NCBI GenBank assembly: GCA_022646745.1
Contig: CP060262.1
Location: 810,001-842,000, forward strand
Source: Planctomycetales bacterium
GTDB lineage: Bacteria > 4484-113 > JAFGCY01
Reading direction: 5' to 3'
DNA: 32,000 nt
Below are positions 2,343 to 29,337 of this stretch, in pieces (the stretch's first letter is position 1; every line of letters starts with the position of its first letter). The translations under genes were made by a program, and so were the position numbers. A model generated the notes under the pieces. The model searched no databases and was not told the DNA's origin. It saw only the letters and a program-made list of their open reading frames with translations.

Positions 2343-2346
2343 GCTA

Positions 2347-2374
2347 TGGGGGATGAGGGATGCGGGATGAAGTA
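2347..2374. repeat. Tandem heptanucleotide repeat TGNGGGA, 3 copies plus 1 degenerate
   Basis: Reads TGGGGGA TGAGGGA TGCGGGA TGAAGTA contiguously, in the spacer between the convergent flgL and the 2388-3662 gene. Confidence 0.8.
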
Positions 2375-6340: not shown

Positions 6341-6380
6341 AACACAGTCTCACAGTGGGGGATTTGGGGCCAGGGGAATA

Positions 6381-6518
6381 TCAGGCGGGGGGAATGTTGC
6401 CAAGCACATCGCCAAGCCCGCTGATCACACCGTACATCTTCCATGCAATGAACAGCACGCCGATGAAGGCTGCCCAGAAGAAGGGGTTGAATCGCAGGCC
6501 GAACTCGTTCTCGTACAT
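6381..6518 (-). CDS. Small membrane protein (45 aa), hypothetical
   Basis: Internal ATG of the 80-aa track ORF, preceded by AGGAAAGTGGAA. Product is MYENEFGLRFNPFFWAAFIGVLFIAWKMYGVISGLGDVLGNIPPA, with one clear TM helix and strong GC3 bias. Confidence 0.55.
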   Translation of the reverse strand: MYENEFGLRFNPFFWAAFIGVLFIAWKMYGVISGLGDVLGNIPPA

Positions 6519-6679: not shown

Positions 6680-6763
6680 TTCCACGTTCACTTCCATTGC
6701 CTCCCTGATCACCGCTCCCCGTTCCCTGTTCCCAGATCCCTGGTCCCTGGTCCCTGGTTTGAC
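6680..6763. repeat. Tandem heptanucleotide array, consensus NTCCCTG (CAGGGAN on the other strand)
   Basis: In-phase heptads are TTCCACG TTCACTT CCATTGC CTCCCTG ATCACCG CTCCCCG TTCCCTG TTCCCAG ATCCCTG GTCCCTG GTCCCTG GTTTGAC. The core is 6701-6756. It lies between the divergent small-ORF pair and tRNA-Ser. Confidence 0.85.
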
Positions 6764-6834: not shown

Positions 6835-6928
6835 GGAGAGTTGGCCGAGTGGTTGAAGGCGGCTGCCTGCTAAGCAGTTATACGGTGATATAGCCGTATC
6901 GAGGGTTCGAATCCCTCACTCTCCGCCA
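6835..6928 (+). tRNA. tRNA-Ser (anticodon GCU) with encoded CCA
   Basis: Folded by hand. Acceptor stem GGAGAGT/ACTCTCC. Anticodon stem GCTGC/GCAGT with loop CTGCTAA (anticodon GCT). Long variable arm ATACGG...CCGTAT. T-arm GAGGG-TTCGAAT-CCCTC. Discriminator G followed by CCA. Confidence 0.95.
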
Positions 6929-7000: not shown

Positions 7001-7519
7001 GTGGTATATCCCGCCGTGGCAGATCCTGATTACAGAAACCCCTCGCAGCCGATCGACCCAGGCGTCGACATCGGGCATGTGCACCTGCGCGTCGCCGATG
7101 TGGAGCGCGCACTGGACTTCTACTGCGGTGTGCTCGGCTTCACACTTACGCAGCGCATGGGCCGGCGCGCGGCCTTCGTGTCCGCCGGTGGCTACCACCA
7201 CCATATCGGGCTCAACTCCTGGCAGAGCGAGGGTGGCGGGCCTCCCGCGCCTGGGCATACCGGGCTGTTCCATGCCGCGATCCGCTACCCCAGCCCGCAA
7301 TCGCTGGGCGATGCGATGCGCCGCCTGCAGCAGGCCGGCTGGCCGCTGACAGGTGCCGCCGACCATGGTGTCAGCCTCGCGCTGTACCTGAACGACCCGG
7401 ATGGCAACGGCCTGGAGCTTTACTGGGACCGCCCGCAGGCGGACTGGCCGCTGGACAATGACGGTGAGATGGCGATGGTCACCGAGCCGCTGGACTTCAG
7501 GCTGCTTGGCATTAGCTGA
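7001..7519 (+). CDS. VOC (glyoxalase/bleomycin-resistance/extradiol dioxygenase fold) family protein
   Basis: IGHVHLRVADVERALDFYCGVLGF...AGGYHHHIGLNSW...HAAIRYP...SLALYLNDPDGNGLELYWDRP is the conserved pattern of the CatE-like VOC subfamily. GTG start, uncertain. Confidence 0.8.
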   Translation: MVYPAVADPDYRNPSQPIDPGVDIGHVHLRVADVERALDFYCGVLGFTLTQRMGRRAAFVSAGGYHHHIGLNSWQSEGGGPPAPGHTGLFHAAIRYPSPQSLGDAMRRLQQAGWPLTGAADHGVSLALYLNDPDGNGLELYWDRPQADWPLDNDGEMAMVTEPLDFRLLGIS

Positions 7520-7551: not shown

Positions 7552-7983
7552 ATGCAGCACATAGTTGACAGGCTGAACCGCGACTTCGAGCTCTGGGTGG
7601 AGATGGCCAACCACCTGCCGGACGAGGCATTCGCCCTCGAGCTCCCGCTGCCATCCAACTCGATCGGAGACCAGTTCTGGTGCCTGGTCGGTGCCCGCGA
7701 AAGCTACATCCGCGCCATCGAGGAGGGTGAGTGGCAGGGCTTCACCTGCTCGCTGTCCCGCGATGACATTGCCAGCCGCGAGGGTATCGTGCGCGCCCTG
7801 TGCGACAGCGCGAGCTCCTTTTACGAACTGGCCAGCTACACCGAGTGGGACGACCCACGCACCGAACTGCTGCTGGACCTGCTGGAGCATGAGGCCCAGC
7901 ACATGGGGCAGCTGATCCGCTTCTGCTACGCGCTGGAGCTCGGCTTCCCGATGTCCTGGAAACGGCGCTGGTCGCTTGAGTGA
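7552..7983 (+). CDS. DinB-like four-helix-bundle family protein
   Basis: 143 aa. The C-terminal LLDLLEHEAQHMGQL motif and the overall size are typical of the DinB/YfiT-like superfamily. Confidence 0.6.
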   Translation: MQHIVDRLNRDFELWVEMANHLPDEAFALELPLPSNSIGDQFWCLVGARESYIRAIEEGEWQGFTCSLSRDDIASREGIVRALCDSASSFYELASYTEWDDPRTELLLDLLEHEAQHMGQLIRFCYALELGFPMSWKRRWSLE

Positions 7984-8053: not shown

Positions 8054-8144
8054 GCAGTCTCATTTCTTATTGCGACTAAGACTCATGTAGATCTTCCATG
8101 CATTCACGCGCTTGCCAGCCTTTCCCGGATATTAGTAGATAGGT

Positions 8145-10182: not shown

Positions 10183-13100
10183 CTACGGAATTTCAATCAG
10201 CGGGATTTCCTGCCAATCAAGCCCTGAGCCGAAGGGATTGACCGGATTGATGGCCTTTGGATAGCGCAGGTTGTAGTTTGACGATACCGTGCTGAAGCCC
10301 GGGATTGTCTCCGAATCAATGTACAGATACAGGCTGCCATACAGGTCCTGGTCGGCAGGACTTCCGCTAAGCCACACTGAATCCAGGTAGTGCGCCTTGA
10401 AGATGTAGGTATCTCCGCTGACAGCCTGCGACTCTGGCAGGAAGTAGTACCAGTCCCACCAGCCCGGCACCCTGCCTATCATACCCTTGCCACTGTCCTG
10501 CTGGCCTGCCACAAGCTGGCTCCCCGGTTCAAGCACCACCAGGCGGAAGTCCTCATTCGGCACACCCGGCACCTGTGACACATCGCTCGTCGGTGGCACG
10601 GCATCCGCTGCCCACTTCAGCTCCGCCTTCATTGCCGCCTGCTCATTGCGGACCAGCGTGAAGTGTTCAGCTGTCAGCGTGTTGACAATGTAATGTGTGT
10701 ATTCCAGATCTCCGGCACTCGCCGGCAGCTTGCAGAACATGTAGATCCTGTTCTCGCCGGGATCCAGGTAGCGAGTGAACGCAAAGTTTCCATCCGGCTT
10801 GATCAGATGCGATATCGAGTAGTATTCCGTTCCGGCATCCCTCCAGTAGAGCCGGGACTGGCTGCCGGAGGCATCCTCCCGGATATTGTCCTTCATGAGG
10901 ATATCTGCTGGCTCAACATCACCGTATGTGATCCGGCCCTCGATCCTTGCATATGGCACATCTATCACCGCGCCATTCTCGGGAGATGTGATCTCGATTG
11001 TCACGGTCTCCGCATCCGGCAACGAGTCAATGCCCCAGGGAACTGGCCAGTAGTCCTCATATGACAGGTACTTGTCCGCTTCGATCACGATCGGTACGCC
11101 CACAATCGTGTCACGGTAGCCATCCTTCGTCATGACGGCATCGTAAGTGCCGACAGGCAGGATCTTCTCAAACGCCCCGCGCCCGAAGTCGTTGCCATAT
11201 GCTGTCGCAGCCAGCTGGCCATCCTGCATGAAGTCAACCCGCACTCCCGGCACTTCCCTGAAGTAGTAGTCATTACTGGGATCAAGGGAAAGCTCACCCG
11301 TGTCCGGATCTACAACTAGCTGTTCGCCATAGTGGCTCTCGAGAATGCCGCCTACCTTCAGCACACCGGTATCCTGCGTGTAATAGTTGGTCAGGTCGAG
11401 TACCAAATAGCGCATCTGCAAGCCGTAGTTCTCCGGCTCATAGCTAACGAATGATGTGCCGAAGATGCCGCCTTCCAGCCCGATCTTTCCGCGCACACCG
11501 ACCCAGGACTGCAAGCTTACATATGGATTGCTGCCCGCTGTGGCCTTCGCCTGGATTTCCACGTAAGGTGCCTGGAAGTGGATGTACGGACCGACAACCC
11601 CGTACAGGTACAGCCCGAATTCCGGCCCGACCAGTGAGAACTCACCGCGGATCGCTCCGTAGACATTGGCCTGCGCCGGCACATCATTGAATCCGAAATC
11701 GGTCTTGTGCATGTACGACCCGAAGCCCTTCTCCGGAGTGTATTCGCCAACCATCCTTGCGCTTGCATGGCCGGTGATCAGACCCTCCACACCGGCTTCC
11801 GCGAAGGCCTCGAAGTTCAGCCAGAGGTCAATCCTCGGCGTGATGATGATCGGCACCAGCCCCGCCGGGATGCTGATCGGATTCAGCCACAGGGTGCCGA
11901 GCTTCAGCTTGGACTCCGCCAGCTTGATCGCCGCGAACAGCTTGGCTTCGCCCTCGAGCTGCATCTCAAACTCGATGCTGCATTCAATCAGGGTGATGGT
12001 GCCGAGGTCACTCCAGCTTGTCCCGATCTCGACCCTGAAGTCCAGCACCTGGCGCATCCTGAAGCTGCCGGACAGATGCAGGTTCTCATTGACCTCCTTC
12101 GTAATCCGCGATTCCCACCAGTTGCCAAACACGGTATCACTGGCCTCCCTGGCAACGGATGAGGTACCGGTCTCCGGCAGCAACTCGAACTCCACCTCAT
12201 CCACGTCCGGGATGAATTCACGGACATCATCCGGCGTGATCTTCAGCTGGTAGTCCAGCCTGAGGTAGTCAAACGCATCCTCCAGTCCGGCCTGGCTGGT
12301 GACCAGCTCCAGTCCACCCGGTATGGGATTGACAGCTTCCACGCGGCGCAGCAGGCCTTCGCCCTCCGCTGATACGATGATGCTGCCAACCTGGATCCCA
12401 TCCGTCTCTCCGAGCAGCACGAGCCCATCGGCGCTGACGGAGTCAATCGTCGTGAGCGCCGGATCCAGCACCTCGGTCCAGGGGTTTGCCAGCGGCTGCT
12501 GCGGGAAATCCTCACCGGTACTGTCATACGGTGCAATGGTGTAGGTGTCATATTCCACACTGATGAGCTGCACACTGAAGTGATAGGGCGAGCCGCTGCC
12601 CTGGGAGATCGCCACTCTGTCCACCTTCACATATGGCCCAGCCTGGTTGCGGCCGTAGATGTTGTAACCAAGCACGCTGGCGAAGAAGTGACGGCCGATC
12701 GGCGTCACGTCACTGATGTTGACTTCGCCGTTGCCATCCCCATCCGCGACTCTGGCCTGCTCCCAGCCGGGAGCTCCTTCCCGAGCGCTGAAGTTCTGTC
12801 CCAGCGGTGTAAGGTCGGAGATGTTCACCTCACCGTTCAGGTCATAGTCCCCGACATTGCGGTAGGTCCAGCTCAGGATCGCGCCGTTGCCATCCGGAGT
12901 GATTGCCAGGTCATCGACGAGGTTCTCCGGCCCGCTGGGCAGGGCACTGGGGTTCCGGTCCGGCTGGCCCGCCAGCGACTGCAGCAGTGCGCCCCTGAGC
13001 ACGTCAAACAGGCCCTCATCCATTCCCGCTGGCGCAGCTGCCAGCCTGATCTCTGCCTGCGCTAGATCAAGCGATGCTCCTTCCAGCCTGCGGGGGGCGA

Positions 13101-13459: not shown

Positions 13460-13634
13460 CAATTAGCCGCACAAATGAGACTGATACTCAGATTCCGGCG
13501 GAGTTTCCTGACAGCAGGCGGATTGCACTGTTGCCAGCATTGCGACTTCATGCCTACTGCATGACTATGCGGCAAATGCTCTGACTGCGAACTGTACAGC
13601 CTGTGAAGCCGCACTTCCCGATTCCCTCAGCCAC

Positions 13635-13697
13635 ACTCTTTACTCACAACTCATTGCTCATTGCTTCTCCAAGCTCCCCACTCCAAGCTCCAAACTG
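13635..13697. repeat. Heptad-periodic array (ACTCNNN / NNNGCTC) including a 14-bp direct repeat CTCCAAGCTCC x2
   Basis: ACTCTTT ACTCACA ACTCATT GCTCATT GCTTCTC CAAGCTC CCCACTC CAAGCTC CAAACTG, immediately upstream of TGTACAAT and the yfiT-like gene. Confidence 0.75.
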
Positions 13698-13738
13698 CCA
13701 TGTACAATCCTCGCGGCATGGGCATGAGGAGTGGCAAC

Positions 13739-14266
13739 ATGGAAGAGCTGCAGTATCCGATCGGCAAGTACCGCATCGAGCATGAGTTCACAGCAGAGCG
13801 GCGCGCGGAGCTGGTTGGGCAGCTTGCCAGCCTGCCGCAGCAGCTGCGTGAAGCTGTCAACGGACTGGATGATGGACTGCTGGGCACGCCTTACCGGCCC
13901 GAGGGCTGGACGCTGAGGCAGGTGGTGCACCATGTGGCGGACAGCCATATGAATGCCTATGTGCGCATGCGCCTGGCGCTGACCGAGGAGGAACCGGCAA
14001 TTGCGCCTTACAAGGAAGGCCACTGGGCGATGCTGCCGGATGCGCAGCAGGCACCGCTCGGGTTGTCACTTTCCCTGCTGGACGGCCTGCATGGCCGCTG
14101 GGTGCTGTTGCTGGAAAGCATGACGGATGAGCAGTTCGCGCGGCGCTTCTTCCATCCGCAGTACGGCACACGGGTGCGCCAGGACGAAATCCTCTCGCAC
14201 TACGCCTGGCACGGCCGGCACCATACGGCGCATGTGACGGGCCTGCGGGAACGGATGGGCTGGTAG
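13739..14266 (+). CDS. yfiT: YfiT/DinB-family metal-dependent hydrolase or thiol S-transferase-like protein
   Basis: MEELQYPIGKY...TPYRPEGWTLRQVVHHVADSHMNAYVRMRLALTEEEPAIAPY...HGRW...YAWHGRHHTAHVTGLRERMGW is collinear with B. subtilis YfiT, including the His triad. I chose the start at 13739 because GAGGAG lies 7 nt upstream. The track ORF begins at 13661. Confidence 0.85.
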   Translation: MEELQYPIGKYRIEHEFTAERRAELVGQLASLPQQLREAVNGLDDGLLGTPYRPEGWTLRQVVHHVADSHMNAYVRMRLALTEEEPAIAPYKEGHWAMLPDAQQAPLGLSLSLLDGLHGRWVLLLESMTDEQFARRFFHPQYGTRVRQDEILSHYAWHGRHHTAHVTGLRERMGW

Positions 14267-14297
14267 CGGCGGCTTGAATGCCGCCATACCTGTTGTC

Positions 14298-14372
14298 AGA
14301 CTTAAGACTTCAGACTCCAGAGAAGCAAATACTGGATCGGCACATCGATCTGTAGTCTGATTTCTGAGGTCT
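14298..14372. repeat. Palindromic AGAC-heptad element, copy L
   Basis: Plus-strand array AGACTTA AGACTTC AGACTCC AGAGAAG (14298-14325), then a 19-nt spacer. Minus-strand array AGACCTC AGAAATC AGACTAC AGATCGA (14345-14372). The arms are roughly 21/27 complementary by hand alignment. Confidence 0.85.
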
Positions 14373-14381
14373 GATCACTTG

Positions 14382-14858
14382 CTACAGCGTCATCCCGCCC
14401 GCCATCAGGTGGCCACCCTCATCCGTGCCGCAGACCAGCAGGCGCAGCCTGACGATGTATTCCACGCCCTGCCTGAACTTGACCACGACCGGCTTGTCGT
14501 CCTTGCCGGGAGTGAGGTAGCTGTCCACTTCAATGCTGATCGGACCGACGCCGTCGGCGGCATCGTCCTGCACGTCCGACTTGAGCGTACTGACACCAGC
14601 AGTCGCGGTATCACGCCACTCGCCATCCACCAGCACCTGCACCATCACGTTCTGCGGGGCGGCGGATTGGAAGTCCAGCGTCATCGCCAGCCGGTCCTTC
14701 GTGGAGCTGTCCCTCAGCTCGGCATGCTCAGCGATCGGCTTGCCGTCAATCCTGGCCGAACTGGCCAGATGCTCCTCGCATCAAGCGCGGCCGGGGCCGG
14801 CCTGCAGGACGGCAATGGCCAGCGCCATTGTCAGTGCAGCTGTAATCTTCCTGATCAT
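14382..14858 (-). pseudogene. Small exported protein gene interrupted by an in-frame TGA (nonsense pseudogene, base-call error or recoding candidate)
   Basis: ATG at 14858 with GAGG 8 nt upstream. Signal-peptide-like MIRKITAALTMALAIAVLQAGPGRA, then TGA (14781-14783), then the same frame continues with coding-like GC3: CEEHLASSARIDGKPIAEHAELRDSSTKDRLAMTLDFQ... to the stop at 14382. The track lists only the last 100 aa. Confidence 0.6.
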
Positions 14859-14942
14859 CAGTGAGACCTCATGTCCGTTGGGATGCCCGCCTGGCCCAGC
14901 GACCCGGCAGGAGTTTTGCTGCAGAAATGATAGCATTGGAGC

Positions 14943-15031
14943 AGACTGCAGACATCTGACACCAGACTTCAGATGTATTGTCGGAGTACCATGATATCTC
15001 TCTGAGGTCTGTAGTCTGTCTTCTGAGGTCT
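14943..15031. repeat. Palindromic AGAC-heptad element, copy R
   Basis: Plus-strand array AGACTGC AGACATC TGACACC AGACTTC AGATGTA (14943-14977), then a 19-nt spacer. Minus-strand array AGACCTC AGAAGAC AGACTAC AGACCTC AGAGAGA (14997-15031). The sub-order AGACCTC-AGAAnnC-AGACTAC is shared with copy L. Confidence 0.85.
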
Positions 15032-15061
15032 AGACCGACGGCAGATTGCCGCCGGTACAAT
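15031..15061 (+). promoter_or_regulatory. Candidate promoter of the VOC gene, possibly giving a leaderless mRNA
   Basis: TACAAT at 15056-15061 lies 6 nt before the ATG at 15068, with no Shine-Dalgarno between them. The -35-like TAGACC (15031-15036) overlaps the last AGAC heptad. The spacer is 19 nt, which is longer than optimal. Confidence 0.3.
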
Positions 15062-15067
15062 GTCCCC

Positions 15068-15457
15068 ATGAGAATCGCATTGACAAGCGTCATGGTTGAT
15101 GACCAGCAGAAGGCGCTGGACTTCTACACGGAAAAGCTCGGCTTCGTGAAGATCAACGACCACCCCATGGGCGAACACCGCTGGATTACAGTGGCTGGCC
15201 CCGACGGTCCCGAGGGTGTTGAACTGCTGCTGGAGCCGAATGCCGACCCGGACGCACGGATCTTCCAGGCTGCCATGAAGGACAAGGGCAAACCCTGGAC
15301 CAGTTTTGAGGTGGATGACGTGAAAGCCGAGGTGGAACGCCTGCGCGCCCTCGGCGTGGTCATCACCAAGGAACCCGTCGAGGAGCAGTGGGGCGGATAC
15401 GCTATGTTCGATGACACATGCGGCAACATCATCAGCATCCATTCCGTGGCCGGCTGA
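15068..15457 (+). CDS. VOC/glyoxalase-fold family protein
   Basis: MRIALTSVMVDDQQKALDFYTEKLGFVK...WITV...LLLEP...FEVDDVKAEVERLRALGV...GGYAMFDDTCGNIISIHS is a typical single-domain VOC protein. I chose the internal ATG at 15068, because the track ORF start at 14978 would read through the repeat element. Confidence 0.8.
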   Translation: MRIALTSVMVDDQQKALDFYTEKLGFVKINDHPMGEHRWITVAGPDGPEGVELLLEPNADPDARIFQAAMKDKGKPWTSFEVDDVKAEVERLRALGVVITKEPVEEQWGGYAMFDDTCGNIISIHSVAG

Positions 15458-15519
15458 GCTAAGACAATCTCCCCCCGCAGGGGTAGTAAACACCACCAAG
15501 CACACAGGGGAGTGTTCCA

Positions 15520-16494
15520 ATGCGTTACAGAAGACTGGGATCCGCCGGCATCCAGGTATCCGAGCTGAGCTTCGGCTCATGGGTCACCTTCGGGCAGCAG
15601 TACGGCGTGGATGAGGCGCTGGCCTGCATGGAGGCCGCTTACGAAGCCGGCGTGAACTTCTTTGACAACGCCGAGGCCTACGCCGGTGGCAAGAGCGAAA
15701 CCCTGATGGGTGAGGCCATCAGGAAGGCCGGCTGGAACCGCGCGGACCTCGTTGTCTCCACCAAGATCTTCTTCGGCGGCCAGGGCCCGAACCAGAAGGG
15801 CCTGTCCCGCAAGCATGTGATTGACGGCATGCGCGCCTCTCTGGACCGCATGCAGCTGGACTACGTGGACCTCGTGTTCTGCCACCGACCCGACCCGAAC
15901 ACGCCGATGCTCGAGACCGTGCGCGCGATGAGCTGGGTGGTGGACCAGGGCTGGGCGCATTACTGGGGCACCAGTGAGTGGAGCGCCGAGCAGATCCGCC
16001 ACGCGCATGGCATCGCCGAGCGTGAGCACCTCAACCGCCCACAGATGGAGCAGCCGCAGTACAACATGTTCCACCGCGAGCGCGTCGAGAAGGAGTACGC
16101 GCCGCTGTACGAGGACATCGGGCTTGGCACCACGATCTGGTCACCACTGGCCAGCGGGATGCTGACCGGCAAGTACAACGAGGGCATCCCGGAGGGCAGC
16201 CGCGCGACGCTGCCGAACTACAAGTTCATCCGCGAGGGCATCGAAAGCGACGAGGGCCAGGCCCGCATCGATAAGGTCAAGCAGCTGATGCCGATCGCCG
16301 GCGAACTCGGCTGCAGCATCGCGCAACTGGCACTGGCCTGGTGCCTGAAGTTTGACGGCGTGAGCACGGTGATCACCGGTGCCTCCAGGGCCGAGCAGGT
16401 GTCTGAGAACATGGGCGCGCTGGACGTCGTTGACAAGCTAGACGAGAGCGTGATGGAGCGCATCGAGGCCATACTTGGCAACCGGCCTGTGTAG
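15520..16494 (+). CDS. Aldo/keto reductase (Kv-beta-subunit-like AKR family)
   Basis: [25 protein letters not shown]...[15 protein letters not shown]...VVSTKIF...[12 protein letters not shown]...WGTSEW...QPQYNM...[22 protein letters not shown] 8 nt upstream. Confidence 0.9.
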
Positions 16495-16503
16495 GCGGGA
16501 CGT

Positions 16504-19205
16504 TCAACGCAGTCGCCACATCAGTTTGTCAATGCCCTCCGCATAGTCCGGCATTTTTGCATCGCGTTCATGCAGCAGGACCAGGCAGTCGTCCGCTCCG
16601 TCCTGCAGGCAGTCCAGCAGCAGCTCGGTCATGTCCAGCCCCGGCAGGTAGCTGCGCTTGATGCGCGCCTGCTCCTGCGAGTAGTCATCCAGACTTGGGT
16701 CAGCCCGCAGGAACATGCGCCGGTCATCCAGCAGGCGCCTGAGGATGTCAGCCCGGTCCTGCATGGGGCATTGCCCGGCCGCCTCCACCAGCTCCCGTGG
16801 ATAGGCCTCCTCGATCAGCCGCTCAAATGTCGCCAGGTCCATGCCGGGTACATTCACTGCCGGTGACAATGGATTGTCCGGCTGGATCGTCGGGTTGACA
16901 GCCACGCGATTGTCACGGTCCATCCCGTTGTTGTTGCGCCGGACTGGATCAGCGCCGCTGTCCAGCAGCATGCGCATGCATTCGACATCGTCCATGAACG
17001 TATCGTGGTACAGCAGGTAGGTGAATGTGAAGGGATACTGCCTGCGGCTGTAATAGGTGTTGGCATGCGCGCCATGCTCCAGCATCAATGACAGCATATC
17101 GCGCAGGCTTGCCAGTTCCGCAGTGTCCTTCACCCTGCCGAAGCTGTCCGCCAGTCTGCCCACAGGGCAGCTGCCGACGTAGGCCGCATATTCCTCATCG
17201 TACTCAAGCCCGTAGTTCGGGTCGGCCCCGCCATCCAGCAGCAGCTCCAGCATGTCAACATTGCGCTGCTCGAATGCGAAGTCCATCGGCTGCTGCATGT
17301 ACATCTCCTGGCCATAGATCGCATCCATGTCCCACCAGCAGGCTGCACCGGCATCCAGCAGGATGGCAACGTGCTCGCGCTGCCCTCCAGCACCCCGTGG
17401 TAGAGCGTGATGTACATCCGGTAGTCTTCGATGCTCGCTCGCTGCACCTGATCCGCCAGCAGCATGCGCAGCACCTCCGGATCGGGTTGGTCCATTGCGG
17501 TATAGATCGCATCCGGCAGGCGCTCACGCGGTTCGTATTCGTACTCCCCGCTTGCCAGCAAACTGGCCAGCAACTCAAGGTCACCGAGCGCAATCACCGC
17601 CTGCAGCGGCGGTCGCTCCATTGCCAGCAGTTCTTCGCGCAAGCCCTCACGGCCCGCACTGGCAGCGAGGTACAGGCCGAAGCTGCGCAGGTAGCCAGTT
17701 TCCTTCTCATCCAGTCCTGCGCAGGCTGCTTCAAACTGTGGCCACAGCCCGAGGGCGGCACAACTTGCCGCATCAGGTTCCACTCCCATCGTGAGCAATT
17801 GCCTGGCCAGGCCCAGCCGGCCCCAGCGCAGCACTCGCTGCAAGGGTGTATCGCCTCCTCCATTGGCAAGCAGCGGATCGGCACCGAGCTGCACCAGCCT
17901 GACGAAGTCCGCCTCATAGCTGCTGGAGTCCGGCCTCAGGTACATCAGTGCGTTGTTACCGAGGCTGTCCGTGTAATTGCAGTCTATCCCGAGACTGCTG
18001 AACAGATCGTAGATGCCAATCTCACCCACACGGCTGCATTCGGCCACCAGCTCATGCAGTGTGGTGATCTCTGCAGGGTAGGATGGATGCGACGCTACCT
18101 TTCGCAGGTCCTGCAGGTCCAGACCGTTGGCAAGCATTACTTCAAACAGTTCCCGCAGGCGTGGTGCGGCATCCTCGCCCGCCAGGTCCGGGAAATCCAT
18201 GTAGCTGGACTGGTAAGCCAGCGTGAACAGGTCGTAGTATTGCGCATCCGAAAGGGCCTGCAGGTCCAGACCGTTGTCAATAAGCTGCTGCAGCAGGGAG
18301 GGGTCCAGCAGGCATACCGGCAGCAACCTGTCCTCCGGCATCGCCCCGAGGCCCGTAAGCGGGATTTCCGCAATGTCCCTTCCGCGGTCCAGCATGGCCT
18401 GGCGCTCGCTTGCATCCTGCATGTTTGCCAGTGCAAGGAAGGCATGGATCCACAGGCGGTCGACATGCATCCCGTTGGCAAGCAGTGGGCGCAGCCTGTC
18501 CATCTCCGTTTCATCCAGCCCATCCTCCGCCAGTGCCAGCACAAAGGTACTGCGCAACTGCGCACCATGTTCCAGCAGGGCATCAGTTGTCATTGGCAAC
18601 TCTGAGGAAGCCGCCAGGTACAGCAGGCTGTCAAGGTCGCGCTGGGTCAGCCCTGCCTCAAGCATACTCCTGTGCAGCAGCTCCATTGACAACTCATCGT
18701 AACCCAGCCGGATGGCAATCGGCAGCAGGGCCAGCCCACCATGCAGCTCGAGGACGTCCAACCCCTGCTCATTGCACAATGCAATTGCAGCCTGCTCGTC
18801 AACAAGCGCTGTCTGCAGCACCCTGATCCAGTCCCGCTCCGGGGCATCCGCCTTCCCGCACCAGCCGGCAAACATGTCCTCGATGGCAAGCCAGTTCCCT
18901 GTATCCGCTTTGTACATCCCTGTGACTGATCCAGCGGGAAAGAATGTGTTCAGGCAGCTTCCAGGCGGTTCAATGCCAAACAGTACACAGGCTGGCGGCT
19001 CCTCTCCATAGCCATCATCAAGCCAGTAATTCGGGCCATCGTCGTTGGTAACGTATTTAATTCCGGGCGTGGCAAACGCCGGTCCCTGGACCTGTATCAA
19101 CAGCAGTGCAGCAATCAGACCAAGCATGCGCAGCATCACCCGCAGATCATAGCGCCGTGCTGCATATGCCGCCACTCGCTCAGTCAAGCTCATCCACCAT
19201 TGCAT
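16504..19205 (-). pseudogene. Ankyrin-repeat exported protein, paralogue 6 of the array, split by a 1-nt frameshift near 17383-17388
   Basis: The 691-aa ORF (17130-19205) holds the N-terminal part and the 274-aa ORF (16504-17328) the C-terminal part, each collinear with the matching part of its intact neighbours. Shifting -1 after CTG GAG GGC gives YHGVLEG-QREHVAILLDAGA, a perfect ANK repeat. Likely start at 19136 (MLRMLGLIAALLLIQVQGPAFA) or 19193. Confidence 0.75.
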
Positions 19206-21675
19206 TCAGGCAGTCGCGATAGCCCGGCAGGGCAAAGCCCAGCCGCAGCATGCTGTCAATGCAGGCCCGTGAGCGCTGCACGAAGGCCTCACGGTATAGC
19301 CGCGCCGTGCTTGCTGAATCCGGCGTGTTGGCGGACTGGCTGGCCAGCAGCTCCAGCTGCGCCGCATTGTCACGCCTGATGCAGCCGAGCATCGCATTCA
19401 GCATCTCATCCGGGTTCTGCTCCGGCAGGAACAGCAGCAGGTGCCGGTCCTCCACGTCCGGCAGGTTGGCAACGAGCGGCAGCAACCCGCGAGCGACAGG
19501 CGGCTGCATCGGCTGCCCCGGGACCAGCGTGCCGGCATCGAGGTCCAGCCCGGCTTCCAGCAACAGGTCAAGCACTTCCGCTGATGGCTGCAGCCCGACC
19601 CGCTCAATCAGGGGGACGTATGTGCCGCCGCCTCTATAAGGATTGCTGTCAAGGTAGTAATCCGCGCGCAGGCCATGCTCAACCAGCAGGCGCAGCATTT
19701 CCAATTCCTTTCCGGCGCGCTGGTCCCTGCTATTCGCTCCGGCGCGCGGCAGGCAATACTCAAGCAGGCGGCCGCCCGTCCAGATGCCGAGCTGCTGGTC
19801 GTAGCTGAGCTGGTCGTTCGGGTCAAAGCCGGCGTCGAGCATCAGGCGCAGCATGTCAACCCGGCCCCGGCTGATTGCCATCCCGAGCGACTGCGCCTGC
19901 CGTCCCGCTCCAGGCTGGCAGTCATCCAGCCCGCTGTCCAGCAGTGCCTTCAGCACTGCCGGGTCCTCGTTGTAGCTGGCCGCTTCCAGCAGATCATGGA
20001 ACTGCTCATCCGTCACCGCCGCGCGGATGGCATCATCCGCCAGCAGTGCCTGCAGGCAGTCCAAGCGCTTTGCACCGGTTGCCAGCCTGAGCGGTTCATA
20101 GTCCGGCAGCGGCCAGATGCTGTACTCACCGTTCTCCAGCCGCAGCGCAAGTTCCTCAGGCATGTCAGCGAGGATCAGCGCCTGCAGCGGGGGTTCGTCG
20201 CCAAGCTCCAGCAGCTGCCTGAGAATGTCCTGGCTGTCAGCGGAGCCGGCGAGGATCATCGCGATGTCTGCCTGCCTGATGCGCTCACCGGGCAGCATGT
20301 CCGCCAGCGCCTGACTGTACTCCTCAATCCGCCCGATCGCTCCAAGGCTGGCGGCGTCCGGCTGCTCCACATGTTCGAGCATGAGCTGCCAGAGCTCCGG
20401 CCGCTGATTGATGATTGCCAGGTGCAATGGGCTGAAGCCCTGCTTGTCCGCCTGCAGCGGGTCCATCCCCGCATCCAGTAGCGACTCAATCGATTCCGCC
20501 GTATTCCAGGGGAACCAGCTCACTCCATGCAGCGCCGTGTAGCCGCGCTCATCAGCGAGCAGTGGATCTATCCCCAGCTCCGGCAGCACGCTGGCCAGCC
20601 GCGGGTCAAGTGCCGCCAGCCAGGCGATCTCCGCCGGCTTGCGCACAGCGGGATTGTCCAGGCTGGCTTCCTCCGCCTTGAACCCTGCCTTGGCCAGCAC
20701 AGCCGCACAGCCCGCCAGGTCCGGCGCCTGTTCAGACTCGCTGTTGCCAATAGGCCACATCATCGCAGCCTGCCAGAACATAGCTATCGAATTGGGGCTG
20801 TCCGGCTGCCTGAGCGCTTCGGCATAGCCCCTCTCCATCAGCAATTGCAGCTTGCGCGAGTCATCCATGCAGCCCAGCAGGATGTCATTGCTGAACATTG
20901 CCCGTCCCTGGAAGTAATCGCCATCTTCCAGCAGCGCTGCCAGTTCGTCATGGTCCAGTAGCGGCAGAAATTCGGCAATAGCCTTCTCCCAGCCTCCCTT
21001 GCTGTTGGACAGTCCACACTGCGTTGCCAGGAAATGGTAGAACTCCCGGCGTTCAGCGCTATCCAGGTCAAGCTGAGCACCGATCGTGTATGAATCCAGC
21101 CCGGCTCCGCTGTCCGCCAGGGTCAGAGCCATGATCCGGTCGCCGTAGCGGGCCGCGATCCCGAGCAGCTCATCCATTTCCCGGGTCCCGATTTCGTTCC
21201 GGCGCTCCATCCGTGGCAGCAGGCCGGCCAGCAGCTCCGTGTTGCCATACATCGCGCACATTGACAACAGCTGCATCGCATGCCCACGTTCACAGACTGC
21301 ATCAGGGTTCTCGTCGAACAGGGTCAGCGCGGCCTGCGGGTCAGTCTGGCTCAGCTGCAGTACGGTCAGCCAGGCCCGCTCATCCGGGTCGACAGGCGGG
21401 ATGGTCAGCGCCAGCAGCTGCTCCATCTCGAGGAACTCCGCGATGTCAGGCCGCTCCTCAAAGGCCGGCTCCTGCTCATCCTCAGCAGTGCTGCCAGCCA
21501 CACTTGTCACAGCCCCTGCCTGATTGACGATGATGCCAGCGTGTGTAGCAGCTGTCCTGTTGCAGGAAGCGCAGCACAGAAGGACAGTGAACATTAGCAA
21601 ACCGGAAAGGCTTGCCACCAAAGCCCCTATGCCGCCTGTCCGCACCAGACTGCTGCTATGTCCCTGCCTGTTCAT
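19180..21675 (-). CDS. Ankyrin-repeat exported protein (probable lipoprotein), paralogue 5
   Basis: 831 aa. N-terminus ...LLMFTVLLCCASCNRT. ANK motifs include GYTALHGVS...LLDAGMDPLQADKQGFSPLHLAIINQRPELWQLMLEH. The ATG overlaps the upstream stop (TGATG at 21673-21677). Confidence 0.85.
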   Translation of the reverse strand: MNRQGHSSSLVRTGGIGALVASLSGLLMFTVLLCCASCNRTAATHAGIIVNQAGAVTSVAGSTAEDEQEPAFEERPDIAEFLEMEQLLALTIPPVDPDERAWLTVLQLSQTDPQAALTLFDENPDAVCERGHAMQLLSMCAMYGNTELLAGLLPRMERRNEIGTREMDELLGIAARYGDRIMALTLADSGAGLDSYTIGAQLDLDSAERREFYHFLATQCGLSNSKGGWEKAIAEFLPLLDHDELAALLEDGDYFQGRAMFSNDILLGCMDDSRKLQLLMERGYAEALRQPDSPNSIAMFWQAAMMWPIGNSESEQAPDLAGCAAVLAKAGFKAEEASLDNPAVRKPAEIAWLAALDPRLASVLPELGIDPLLADERGYTALHGVSWFPWNTAESIESLLDAGMDPLQADKQGFSPLHLAIINQRPELWQLMLEHVEQPDAASLGAIGRIEEYSQALADMLPGERIRQADIAMILAGSADSQDILRQLLELGDEPPLQALILADMPEELALRLENGEYSIWPLPDYEPLRLATGAKRLDCLQALLADDAIRAAVTDEQFHDLLEAASYNEDPAVLKALLDSGLDDCQPGAGRQAQSLGMAISRGRVDMLRLMLDAGFDPNDQLSYDQQLGIWTGGRLLEYCLPRAGANSRDQRAGKELEMLRLLVEHGLRADYYLDSNPYRGGGTYVPLIERVGLQPSAEVLDLLLEAGLDLDAGTLVPGQPMQPPVARGLLPLVANLPDVEDRHLLLFLPEQNPDEMLNAMLGCIRRDNAAQLELLASQSANTPDSASTARLYREAFVQRSRACIDSMLRLGFALPGYRDCLNAMVDELD

Positions 21676-24203
21676 CAGCGCAGCCGTTGCAGCATCTGGT
21701 TCAATGCCGTGTTGTAGTCAGGCAGGGCGAAGTCCCGGTTGAGCAGCAGGTCCAGTGCTTCAAGGTCACCCGCTGCGAAGCATTCAGCCATCAGTAGCTT
21801 CTGGTCGGCATCCGACAGCGGCGCATCCAGCCAGGCCAGCAGTTCCGGCAGGAATTCCGTGTTGCCAGACATGATGCAGTTGCGCATTGCCGCCTTGAGG
21901 TCATCATCAAGGGCATGACGCGCGAACTGGCTAAACAGGTCGGGGTCCATCCCTTCAATTGTGGATAAGTTGGTTAACACTTGATTGAACAGTGAACTAG
22001 CAACGATGAATTGTCCTGTTACCCCCGGCGGCAGTCCAGCTGTTGTGCTCTGCTTACCAGCAGCCGGCGGCGGCGGCATCTGTCCTGGGTCCAGGCCATG
22101 GTCCAGCAGCAAGTGCAGGGTGTCAGCATCCAGCGTGCGGCACAGGTCCCACAGCGGTGGCTGGGGAGCCTGTCCCATCATGCTCGTTGCCAGGAAATCC
22201 AGCCGTGCCCCCTCATCCAGCAGCCGCTTGTAAATCCGCCGGTTCAGGTCGTAGTCAAGCACTTCCGGTGTTCCTTTCAGGTGCATGATCGGTGGATCTC
22301 CTGTCAGGGTTCCAGTGGCCGGATCGAGTACCAGCCCGACATTCGGATCAGCACCGAACTCAAACAGCAGCTTAATCATCTCCTCATCCCGGAATGAAAC
22401 CGCCATACACAGCAGCGGCGTGCCCCTGCGCATCATTTCATCCTCGGGTGCAACCGGGATGCCCGCTTCCAGCATGATCCGCAGGCGCTGGGGCTTCCTT
22501 TCCGAAACCGACCTGAACATCGTATAGGCAAAGTAGTCCATGTCCGCCCTGGCCATGTATGTCTCACTATCCAGCAGGGCCTTCAGCATGTCGTCATTTT
22601 CATCAAACTGTTCCTGGTAGAACAGGTAGCCGAAGGTCTCGCCATCTTCAGTGTAGTTCTCCCGCGCCAGCGCATCCCGCAGCAGTTCCGCATCGCCATT
22701 GATCACGAGGCTGCACAGGTCCGGCACGAATCCGCTGTCATACAGCTCCCGGAAGCGCTCGTGGTCCGCCCCTGCCGCCAGGTGCAGGCCGCGTTTGATC
22801 TCCAGTCCGCGATTGACAATCACCTGCTCGCCGGCCGCCTGCTTGAATTGCTCCACTGTGCCAAGCACCGCCAGCGTTGCCAGGTCCGGTTCGCGCTCGC
22901 CCAGCAGCTCCCGTGCCAGCTCGATGTCCCCGTTGACCAGTGCGAAGTGCACCGCGCTGAAGCCATCATCACCTTCCAGCAGCGGGTCCAGCCCGGCGGC
23001 GACGAAGTCCCGTGCTAGCTGCGCCGTGTACTTTTCCTCCTCCTGATAGTGCAGCAGACCCAGCAGTATGGTCTGCCCGCGGCTGTCAAGGCGATTCGGG
23101 TCCACGCCGTGCTCCGCCAGCAGCTCTATCAGCTCCGCCGGCGGAGGCTGCCTGAGGAAGCCGACATCCGCCACCAGCGACCAGTCATCCGGCAGGCTGT
23201 CCAGCGATATGCCGCGCTCATCCAGCAGCTTGAAAAGCCCGACCACATCACCCCAGTCCGTTTCATTGCTTGAGTTGTAAATCTTCTCGCGCTCCTTCAG
23301 CAGCTTGCCAAACAGCTCCCCCTGATCCGTGTAGCGCACTTCCTCCAGGTCCAGCCCGTCGGCCAGCAGCAGCTCCAGCTTGTGGCTGTCATCCATGCAG
23401 CCCTTGACGAGATCATAGGTCTGGCGGTTGCCGGCGTAGCGCAGGTCCGCATCATTCATCGCCTCCGTCCCGCGCAGCTCCCGGCAGCGCTCAATCTGGT
23501 CAGCAAGCTGCTCAGCATCCATCTGCGGCAGTGTGTTGGCAAGCACCGCGCACCAGTCCTGCGCCGTGTCCGAGATCACGTCCTGCTCCAGCACGAATGC
23601 CAATAGATCCGGGTCCGGCTCGTTGCCAATACCGAGATTGCGGAACAGGTAGCCCGCCGACATCGAGATGCGCGCGCCATTCCCGGCCAGCAGCTCAATC
23701 ATCTCCGCATCGCCATGCCCGATCGCGGTGGTCAGCAGTTCATTCATGTCCGCCTGCGTCATCACATCCGCAGCGGCATGCTGCTCCAGCAGGTAGCGGC
23801 AAAGTTCAGCCTTGCCGAACATAACCGACAGGCGCAGCAGGCCGAATCCCGGCAGGGCCTCGCTGGCCGGATCGACCCGCCCGGATTCAAGCAGCGCAAT
23901 CGCTGCCTGTTCATCATCCGCAGCGATTGACAGCACTTCGGCCCAGCCTCGCTCGAATTCACCACTCGGTGGAGACAGCGCGAACAGGTGGGCCTCACTC
24001 TCCATGAAGGGCTGCAGCTCTGGCGCCGGCTGGATCAGCTGGAAGGCCTTGAAGTAGTCCTCACGCTTGATGGTCTTGCCACTACCGGCAGCCCCGCCCT
24101 GGGCGGCACCTCCTGTACCCTTGCCAGTACTGCCCCTGTTGCATGCACACAGCAGAAGCATAGCAAGTATGCCAATCCCGAGCCTTGTCAGCTTTCGACT
24201 CAT
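21675..24203 (-). CDS. Ankyrin-repeat exported protein (probable lipoprotein), paralogue 4
   Basis: I chose the start at 24203 (MSRKLTRLGIGILAMLLLCACNRGS, with GGAAGGAA RBS) rather than the track start at 24356, which overlaps the upstream gene. ANK motifs include GQTILLGLL...FVAAGLDPLLEGDDGFSAVHFALVNGDIELARELL. Confidence 0.85.
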   Translation of the reverse strand: MSRKLTRLGIGILAMLLLCACNRGSTGKGTGGAAQGGAAGSGKTIKREDYFKAFQLIQPAPELQPFMESEAHLFALSPPSGEFERGWAEVLSIAADDEQAAIALLESGRVDPASEALPGFGLLRLSVMFGKAELCRYLLEQHAAADVMTQADMNELLTTAIGHGDAEMIELLAGNGARISMSAGYLFRNLGIGNEPDPDLLAFVLEQDVISDTAQDWCAVLANTLPQMDAEQLADQIERCRELRGTEAMNDADLRYAGNRQTYDLVKGCMDDSHKLELLLADGLDLEEVRYTDQGELFGKLLKEREKIYNSSNETDWGDVVGLFKLLDERGISLDSLPDDWSLVADVGFLRQPPPAELIELLAEHGVDPNRLDSRGQTILLGLLHYQEEEKYTAQLARDFVAAGLDPLLEGDDGFSAVHFALVNGDIELARELLGEREPDLATLAVLGTVEQFKQAAGEQVIVNRGLEIKRGLHLAAGADHERFRELYDSGFVPDLCSLVINGDAELLRDALARENYTEDGETFGYLFYQEQFDENDDMLKALLDSETYMARADMDYFAYTMFRSVSERKPQRLRIMLEAGIPVAPEDEMMRRGTPLLCMAVSFRDEEMIKLLFEFGADPNVGLVLDPATGTLTGDPPIMHLKGTPEVLDYDLNRRIYKRLLDEGARLDFLATSMMGQAPQPPLWDLCRTLDADTLHLLLDHGLDPGQMPPPPAAGKQSTTAGLPPGVTGQFIVASSLFNQVLTNLSTIEGMDPDLFSQFARHALDDDLKAAMRNCIMSGNTEFLPELLAWLDAPLSDADQKLLMAECFAAGDLEALDLLLNRDFALPDYNTALNQMLQRLR

Positions 24204-24267
24204 TTCCTTCCCCCGCGGATGTCCTGTTACACCATATAGCTTACAGACTGCCTGGCCTGGCTGCCGT

Positions 24268-26748: not shown

Positions 26749-26770
26749 ATTGCTTTCCTGGCGAACAGCC

Positions 26771-29254: not shown

Positions 29255-29337
29255 ATGCATCCTCCCCCCGCAGCGCATTCCACTGGCCCTGTCAGCCAGT
29301 GCAGCGGCCGCAGTCACTGTTTCCAGTCTATCAGCAT

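Follow-up and report, generated by a model that had tools for sequence, protein, structure and literature searches.

A 32,000-nucleotide stretch of a Planctomycetales genome (contig CP060262.1 of assembly GCA_022646745.1, positions 810,001 to 842,000; the whole stretch is called the window here) contains two short intergenic elements, L and R, on either side of a gene for a small exported protein. Each element is built from contiguous 7-nucleotide units (heptads) set in two arms on opposite strands. The two are copies of one design, the inverted heptanucleotide array, a widespread intergenic kind of element, previously described and unexplained. From the comparison of related sequences, the arrays are a conserved cis-feature of the small-gene locus in this lineage. 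The constraint is on the core of the unit and not on pairing between the arms; the core is near-invariant, and two to three positions vary freely. Our preferred explanation is that L and R are double-stranded DNA platforms offering a protein multiple sites, one CAG core per 7 bp, to which it would bind cooperatively along the arms. This explanation is tentative, and we hold it somewhat more likely to be wrong than right.

The pattern AGACNNNAGACNNNAGA, with at most one mismatch, has 10 matches in the 32 kb. All fall within L (14298-14372) and R (14943-15031), compared with 0.31 matches in dinucleotide shuffles. A scan for runs of four heptads, requiring 14 or more of the 16 core positions to match, gave six scan windows, all in L and R (0.02 in shuffles), and nothing comparable to the two elements is present anywhere else in the 32 kb. 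Seven is the sole enriched period, with four segments versus 0.4 in shuffles; other periods give 0 to 1. The AGAC heptad arrays described in the original prediction, which was made from the sequence by a model, are thus real and non-random.

L is 75 bp in length with two arrays of four heptads, and R is 89 bp with two arrays of five (Table 1). Both are CAG-first and intergenic. Units are contiguous inside each arm, and the opposed arms are 19 bp apart. A spacer of exactly 19 nucleotides, as first claimed, is obtained for both elements in the earlier register, but the figure depends on how the degenerate units at the outer and inner ends of the arms are counted. The minus-strand arrays of both elements contain the ordered module AGACCTC-AGAAnnC-AGACTAC and share a 24-nucleotide stretch that is identical at 22 positions (14349-14372 and 15008-15031), as had been noted. 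Across the 18 heptads of the window, the unit takes the form nCAGAC or nCAGAA. The C is conserved in 16, the first A in 17, and the G and second A in all 18, while the following positions are nearly random. The gene layout confirms that L occupies the gap where a DinB-family gene and the small gene converge with their 3' ends, and R the gap from which the small gene and a VOC-family gene diverge. The earlier conclusion that an element in the position of L is not simply an operator is a fair one. A degenerate relative proposed at 8074-8094 was rejected; it has a single AGAC, appears in no scan, and folds with a z-score of +0.4.

The locus was compared in 61 kb of sequence from three genomes: the window (assigned in the analysis to NCBI assembly GCA_020440665.1, contig JAGRNS010000012.1), L122 (GCA_041395205.1), and L183 (a Joint Genome Institute, JGI, metagenome). 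The small protein is 82% identical to that of the window in L122 and 58% in L183, and the aldo-keto reductase (AKR) of L183 is 88% identical. Arrays of at least four CAG heptads are found essentially only around the small gene in these 61 kb. In all three genomes, one array ends 6 to 17 nucleotides upstream of a block (TGCTATCAT, TGCTATCAT, and TGCTATAGT) that is the only conserved upstream block, and it lies directly on the -35 region of the conserved putative extended -10 promoter. A second array begins 0 to 8 nucleotides past the small-gene stop codon in all three. The consensus unit is CAGACTT in the window, with CAGTGGT and CAGTAAG in the relatives L122 and L183, so that only C-A-G and the 7-nucleotide phase are common to them. 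Outer arms, and with them local palindromes, flank the gene on both sides in the window; L122 has them only upstream, and L183 lacks them. Single arrays without a partner arm are found in L183 and at the downstream L122 site. Both elements are the same in ten strain-level contigs, without length polymorphism, and for that reason these contigs carry no information on the slippage rate.

The same design is found far beyond this lineage. One genome per bacterial and archaeal species was scanned for AGACNNNAGAC, a gap of 30-60, and then TCTGNNNTCTGNNNTCTG. Loci of the same design number at least 120 in more than 15 bacterial phyla, against a rough random expectation of about 34 for the whole collection, and the matched loci extend well past the minimum of the pattern. 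Named carriers among the matches listed are metagenome-assembled genomes of Planctomycetota, Acidobacteriota, Gemmatimonadota, Omnitrophota, Chloroflexota, Nitrospirota, and Nitrospinota; further metagenome-assembled carriers among them belong to Actinomycetota, Bacteroidota, Verrucomicrobiota, Patescibacteria, Bacillota, Pseudomonadota, Desulfobacterota, and others. The 123 elements at 120 loci have a median of 4 and 5 units per arm (range 2-19) and a median spacer of 24 nucleotides (interquartile range 14-33). Their heptad profile is A.96 G.99 A.96 C.60 R D C.64, in which the AGA core is partly imposed by the search pattern. Several genomes give more than one copy, some of them near-identical, and the free positions are genome-specific.

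A clear within-genome family of this architecture, with a conserved center, is present in the viral contig IMGVR_UViG_3300036851_000385 (70 kb; L139, L141, L144). The contig contains at least five near-identical intergenic elements of the form (CAGACGC)3-4 – CAGT…GGGACTGCCGGCAGTCCC…ACTG – (GCGTCTG)3-4, which share a palindromic center. In one case, two copies bracket a gene pair. Polarity was also counted in viral contigs. With equally sized patterns there were 17 CAG-first stretches and 4 everted ones; stricter patterns of 2+2 heptads gave 4 CAG-first and 8 everted, where all but one of the everted families are two-unit chance matches in coding DNA. Counting real arrays only, the ratio of CAG-first to everted is about 5:1 on small numbers.

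Gene context was assigned with open reading frames (ORFs) barred from crossing the elements; as elsewhere at the related loci, the gene calls are crude ORF heuristics. There are 17 convergent, 22 divergent, and 69 tandem contexts. An excess of convergent contexts (19 versus 6) under the unmasked heuristic was gone once ORFs could no longer run through elements. All gene orientations occur after masking, and context is therefore uninformative. Single arrays have no strand bias relative to transcription (20 versus 24) in a crude test on a set contaminated by palindrome arms.

The closest published counterpart is a set of eight "class 3 paired sites" in Geobacter metallireducens, reported in 2009 without a known function (PMC2700814). 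Each site has five tandem heptanucleotides of the form MTYCTGA (TCAGRAK on the other strand). The pairs lie on opposite strands over approximately 75-115 bp, between genes such as moaA-mosC, cbiG-cobQ, and proB-proA, and binding by IHF/HU was offered as a guess only (PMC2700814). L and R have 4 to 5 units per site against five, the same CAGA core, opposed-strand pairing, CAG-first polarity, an intergenic location, and lengths within the Geobacter range. Geobacter sequences such as ATTCTGA CTCCTGA ATTCTGA are made of units with the CAGA core and polarity seen in L and R, which agree with the published description unit by unit, as in TCAGAAA and TCAGAAG. The two sets differ at the fourth core base, which is A in Geobacter (CAGAA) whereas L and R prefer C (CAGAC). 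They also differ in location, as the Geobacter pairs lie between co-directional operon genes, L between convergent genes, and R in a divergent promoter region. The comparison supplies a name and not a mechanism.

The arms of L are 81% complementary across 26 nucleotides. Folding z-scores for the plus and minus strands as RNA are -3.1 and -2.0 for L (-31.4 kcal/mol at z = -3.1) and -2.2 and -1.7 for R. As plus-strand DNA they are -1.9 and -0.7. The predicted stems are short CAGAC/GUCUG helices interrupted by internal loops. The long imperfect palindrome of the original prediction is thus mostly a palindrome of cores; the complementarity of the CAGA cores holds, but folding is barely above that of shuffles. 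Hairpin potential is weak and only marginally better than in shuffled sequence, above all for R.

Enterobacterial repetitive extragenic palindromes (REPs) and bacterial interspersed mosaic elements (BIMEs) are short imperfect palindromes that are scattered through intergenic regions, within operons and at 3' ends, in genome-specific families. The REPs of Escherichia coli occupy the same kind of place as the Geobacter class 3 pairs. L and R could be structured elements of this kind, with arms that pair in RNA or extruded single-stranded DNA as a long imperfect stem-loop. Such a stem-loop would protect 3' ends, terminate or insulate transcription, or tune translation termination of the upstream gene. 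This is an unlikely explanation in our judgment, although it has several observations behind it. The layout is inverted with a segmented stem predicted, L as RNA and the upstream element of L122 (a strong hairpin, RNA z = -6.3/-5.2) fold better than shuffles, and L begins just past a stop codon between convergent genes, while the Geobacter pairs sit inside operons. Free positions of the two arms of an element are pairable at 0.58, versus 0.47 for arms of different loci (p = 2e-4), a real but small excess. Some elements have a perfect GC hairpin in the spacer, although spacer hairpins are not generally enriched (17 versus 11).

Several results are at odds with such a stem-loop. As DNA, R folds no better than shuffles, and its RNA folding is marginal. 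The conserved -10 block, if correctly placed, is downstream of R's inner arm, which would then be left out of the small-gene mRNA. No U-tract follows the 123 elements (mean of 3.0 T in the next 10 nucleotides). A REP is a single palindrome of 20-40 nucleotides with a conserved GTAG-type head, is not made of 7-nucleotide units, is moved by REP-associated tyrosine transposases (RAYTs), and is rarely found in divergent promoter regions. L and R have no conserved head tetranucleotide outside the heptads, their stems are weak and segmented (z of -0.7 to -3.1), and the constraint is on the periodic core. Rfam 15 gave merely chance-level matches across 13500-15600, and Rfam found nothing on the elements at 18 related loci; a known RNA family was accordingly rejected for L, R, and their relatives. 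Pairing cannot account for a C-A-G that is kept in three genomes while the rest changes. Taken together, the weakness of the stems, the unpartnered arrays of the relatives, the one conserved trinucleotide, and the arm over the -35 region argue against a purely structural hairpin.

Heptameric repeats are the most over-represented class among the longer simple sequence repeats (SSRs) of bacterial intergenic DNA, as reported for many bacteria, and two papers review slippage as their suggested cause (PMC4679880, PMC4692102). According to later citing papers, this over-representation has been known since 2007, with no function established; inverted heptamer pairs have been noted in Xanthomonas (PMC4692102, PMC4679880, bioRxiv 10.1101/2022.06.06.494920). 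Cyanobacterial repeats of the short tandemly repeated repetitive (STRR) type, GGGAATC of Xanthomonas, and TAACTGA of Beggiatoaceae resemble L and R in having tandem 7-nucleotide units confined to intergenic DNA, sometimes in inverted pairs, and in having no known partner protein; they keep their genomic positions and vary in length and sequence among relatives. They differ in unit sequence, and the reports are mostly on single direct arrays. A G-quadruplex has been proposed for the G-rich units, which is impossible for CAGAC units.

The arrays of L and R may then be a neutral heptanucleotide microsatellite, made and renewed by slippage, whose persistence at the locus reflects mutational inertia and not selection. 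The general excess of heptameric repeats, the range in unit number across loci, the turnover of units between relatives, the enrichment of period 7, and heptad arrays of other units in the window (2346-2369, 6712-6758, and 13650-13665) all fit this explanation, which nevertheless seems to us improbable. Variation is confined to two to four positions of the unit, with the C-A-G core present in all arrays of the three genomes. Length polymorphism is zero in the ten strain-level contigs. The layout is consistent, with two arms of 4 to 5 units, a spacer of about 24 nucleotides, and CAG-first polarity, and the arrays keep their places with respect to the promoter and the stop codon. The uneven conservation within the unit, the strain invariance, and the conserved placement count against a microsatellite that is purely neutral.

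In all three genomes the small gene and its promoter are bracketed by arrays in mutually inverted orientation. The bracketing arms of L183 are 21-23 nucleotides in length, 78-81% complementary, and 574-632 nucleotides apart, with a common outer boundary GACGTC; those of L122 are 50 nucleotides in length and 70% complementary. The genes beside the upstream array are not the same in the three genomes (window 14943-15519, L122 9560-9822, and L183 1024-4000). The VOC gene is missing in L122, where the upstream array is directly before the conserved AKR leader, and L183 has extra ORFs of 231 and 45 amino acids and a short-chain dehydrogenase/reductase (SDR) gene near its upstream array. The borders of the arrays are therefore also sites of insertion or deletion. 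These observations would suit inner arms that are the terminal inverted repeats of a cassette of approximately 650-700 bp, which contains the small gene and is moved or rearranged by a heptad-recognizing recombinase or transposase, in line with the captured gene of the original prediction.

We consider a cassette highly doubtful. The locus is syntenic with AKR, VOC, and DinB genes across relatives, which fits vertical descent. No direct repeat that could be a target-site duplication is seen on reading the sequence that flanks L (ctgttgt ... tcacttg) or R (ttggag ... agaccga). Pfam found no transposase or recombinase domain in the 19 proteins of the window, and neither a transposase nor a recombinase is enriched near the related loci. 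The small protein has no relatives beyond those compared here in a database of 5.8 billion proteins, and elsewhere the same architecture is a compact element of 60-110 bp with no cargo. The window has no further copy of L or R, and a 22-mer had 0 matches in JGI metagenomes. A MITE (miniature inverted-repeat transposable element) was rejected on the missing duplication and the missing copies. Of the mobile REP- or MITE-like palindrome first suggested, the dispersed class survives, with near-identical copies in some genomes, while mobility at this locus does not; synteny, the lack of a target-site duplication, and the lack of a transposase argue against a mobile element.

The omega repressor of plasmid pSM19035, a ribbon-helix-helix (RHH) protein, binds 7-bp sites that adjoin one another, direct or inverted, over promoters, cooperatively and with one protein unit per heptad. 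In L and R the 7-bp units are contiguous within each arm, those of R over a putative promoter, but the opposed arms stand 19 bp apart. The omega unit is WATCACW where L and R have nCAGACn, opposed arrays in the omega operators are not separated by a 19-bp spacer, and one of the copies here (L) is at 3' ends. The omega gene adjoins its sites on the plasmid, and no such gene is in this window. Judged by these features the element is not a member of the omega family, as it lacks the sequence and genetic traits that define omega operators. The suggestion of an omega or RHH operator in the original prediction therefore keeps only its mode of heptad binding, which is the best fit, and loses the family assignment; the same architecture also stands beside unrelated housekeeping genes in many phyla. 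The heptads of the Vibrio cholerae ctxAB promoter, TTTTGAT (bioRxiv 10.1101/2021.05.14.444153), are contiguous 7-bp sites of this kind as well and are likewise different in unit.

With the hairpin, neutral, and mobile explanations disfavored, what is left is a periodic CAG core that is read by something, most simply a protein that binds double-stranded DNA. In the platform model preferred here, binding would be cooperative within each arm, in an omega-like mode, with one CAG core recognized by the protein every 7 bp. R would control both divergent promoters it abuts. L would pair with R through protein bridging, or would block convergent transcription. Replication slippage may account for the rapid turnover of unit number and free positions. 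The sequences show the architecture, its statistics, the conserved core, the conserved position in three genomes, and the weak hairpin potential, whereas we infer protein binding, the promoter assignments, and any effect on expression.

A number of points weigh against a protein platform. A core of 3-4 nucleotides gives a DNA-binding protein very little specificity, and the AGA core of the cross-phylum set owes something to the search itself. The unit changes between close relatives, which means that a reader would need only CAG or would have co-evolved. Spacer length is variable in the class, and the arms are therefore not helically phased. Pfam found no RHH, helix-turn-helix (HTH), or other DNA-binding domain in the window proteins, so that the small DNA-binding gene thought worth seeking nearby is not found within 32 kb. 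The 112 ORFs flanking related elements are ordinary housekeeping genes with no family or regulator enriched. REP-like RNA elements are typical of the places taken by L, between 3' ends, and by the Geobacter elements, within operons, and the upstream element of L122 is the strong hairpin described above. The promoter positions at the locus were assigned from sequence alone.

A single reader may serve the CAG(A) arrays of more than 15 phyla and some phages, for example a protein of the cold-shock-domain or RHH type that acts on double- or single-stranded nucleic acid in a 7-nucleotide register. This broader proposal is rather unlikely. A separate rival explanation is that the GTCT strand (GTCTGHY units) is a loading array that binds one cold-shock protein (Csp) per 7 nucleotides, which would melt the stem or act in antitermination. 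Cold-shock proteins are near-universal, which suits the wide phylogenetic spread. Given CAG-first polarity, every transcript of an element has a GUCU array as its 3' arm. The CspB protein of Bacillus subtilis binds the heptanucleotide GTCTTTG/T with the strongest preferences at T2, C3, and T4 (PMC1904285). That T-C-T is the exact complement of the invariant A-G-A core, and the footprint is about 7 nucleotides per protein. The match is only 3-4 nucleotides, however, and the crude count of single arrays by strand shows no bias. Because the orthologous arrays of L122 and L183 (ACTGACC and CTTACTG on that strand) do not resemble GTCTTTG, we regard a Csp array as very improbable.

The three-genome comparison isolates the constrained part of the element, C-A-G every 7 nucleotides, in a design far wider than the one published case. 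A single reader, if it exists, would give the heptamer excess of bacterial intergenic DNA a functional explanation, and any reader protein would represent a new layer of regulation or of chromosome organization. If there is no reader, the locus documents the persistence of repeats made by slippage. In either case it is a clean test case, with two compact copies at defined promoter and stop-codon positions that are conserved in three genomes.

Other candidates were tried and rejected. An intrinsic terminator is contradicted by the absence of a terminator-like site in 14150-15150 and of a U-tract; no sigma-70 consensus site was found in that interval either. Integron attC sites were rejected because reading the sequence shows no RYYYAAC ... 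GTTRRRY cores at the ends of L or R, and no element follows the VOC gene. Likenesses to Type III restriction sites (AGACC, CAGAG, CAGCAG), primase triplets (CTG), the MetJ metbox (AGACGTCT), and the Neisseria DNA uptake sequence are coincidences of 3-5 nucleotides with no supporting context.

Table 1. Elements L and R and the features around them (positions within the window)
Feature	Positions	Strand	Description
L outer (left) arm	14298-14325	+	4 heptads: AGACTTA AGACTTC AGACTCC AGAGAAG; faces the 3' end of the DinB-family gene
L spacer	14326-14344		19 nt; with flanks includes a small GATCG...CGATC hairpin
L inner (right) arm	14372-14345	-	AGACCTC AGAAATC AGACTAC AGATCGA; 8 nt past the small-gene stop; bears the 24-mer common to R
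R inner (left) arm	14943-14977	+	AGACTGC AGACATC TGACACC AGACTTC AGATGTA; in the putative small-gene promoter it spans about -23 to -57
R spacer	14978-14996		19 nt
R outer (right) arm	15031-14997	-	AGACCTC AGAAGAC AGACTAC AGACCTC AGAGAGA; abuts TAGACC
Putative extended -10 of small gene	14927-14935	-	TGCTATCAT; resembles the sigma-70 extended -10
Small exported-protein gene	14382-14858	-	158 codons including in-frame TGA
Candidate selenocysteine insertion sequence (SECIS) hairpin	14751-14769	-	7-bp, conserved, GU in loop in 3/3 genomes; begins 14 nt after TGA
DinB_2-family gene	13661-14266	+	Convergent with the small gene; start at ~13739 according to the gene caller
GC-rich hairpin	14266-14287		After the DinB_2-family gene
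VOC/glyoxalase-family gene	15068-15457	+	Divergent from the small gene; ATG at 15068
Aldo-keto reductase (AKR) gene	15520-16494		After the VOC gene

The small gene is probably a mis-annotated gene for a secreted selenoprotein. It contains an in-frame TGA at 14781-14783 that is directly followed by a Cys codon (…AGPGRA-TGA-CEEHL…). The predicted signal peptide is MIRKITAALTMALAIAVLQAGPGRA, after which TGA-Cys follows. The TGA is kept in the ten strain-level contigs and in both relatives, with conserved residues on both sides, and the candidate SECIS hairpin lies downstream of it (Table 1). Gene callers shorten the protein to 100 residues, and for annotation the value of the locus is that it exposes a probable secreted selenoprotein cut in this way.

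The consensus of the sigma-70 extended -10 is TGnTATAAT, to which the putative element of the small gene can be compared. On the VOC side, R was said to overlap a -35-like TAGACC. The overlap exists, but is a single base (TAGACC is at 15031-15036). This TAGACC is 19 nucleotides upstream of a TACAAT at 15056-15061, which ends 6 nucleotides before the VOC ATG. Since TACAAT is this close to the ATG and no Shine-Dalgarno sequence lies between them, the VOC mRNA is probably leaderless.

A second VOC/glyoxalase gene is found at 7016-7519 and is followed by a second DinB-like ORF at 7552-7983, the same families as those around L and R. The region 16504-31917 on the minus strand encodes six large paralogous ankyrin-repeat proteins (approximately 270-890 amino acids) arranged head to tail. 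Downstream of the small gene in L122, at 10520-10790, are three direct repeats of about 65 nucleotides (…ctattcgcactattcagact[t/a]cccccgccagtgccagacttacatctggcctcccc…) that are absent from the window.

The window also contains heptad arrays of other units. One of ATGGGGG/ATGAGGG (2346-2369) is intergenic and lies between convergent genes. An intergenic array of CTCATTG/CTCCAAG (13650-13693) is immediately upstream of the DinB-family gene. Arrays of the GGGG type and the TCCCTGG type (6357-6395 and 6712-6758) are inverted, intergenic, and approximately 320 bp apart around an ORF for a 45-amino-acid membrane protein, just upstream of tRNA-Ser(GCU) at 6835-6928.

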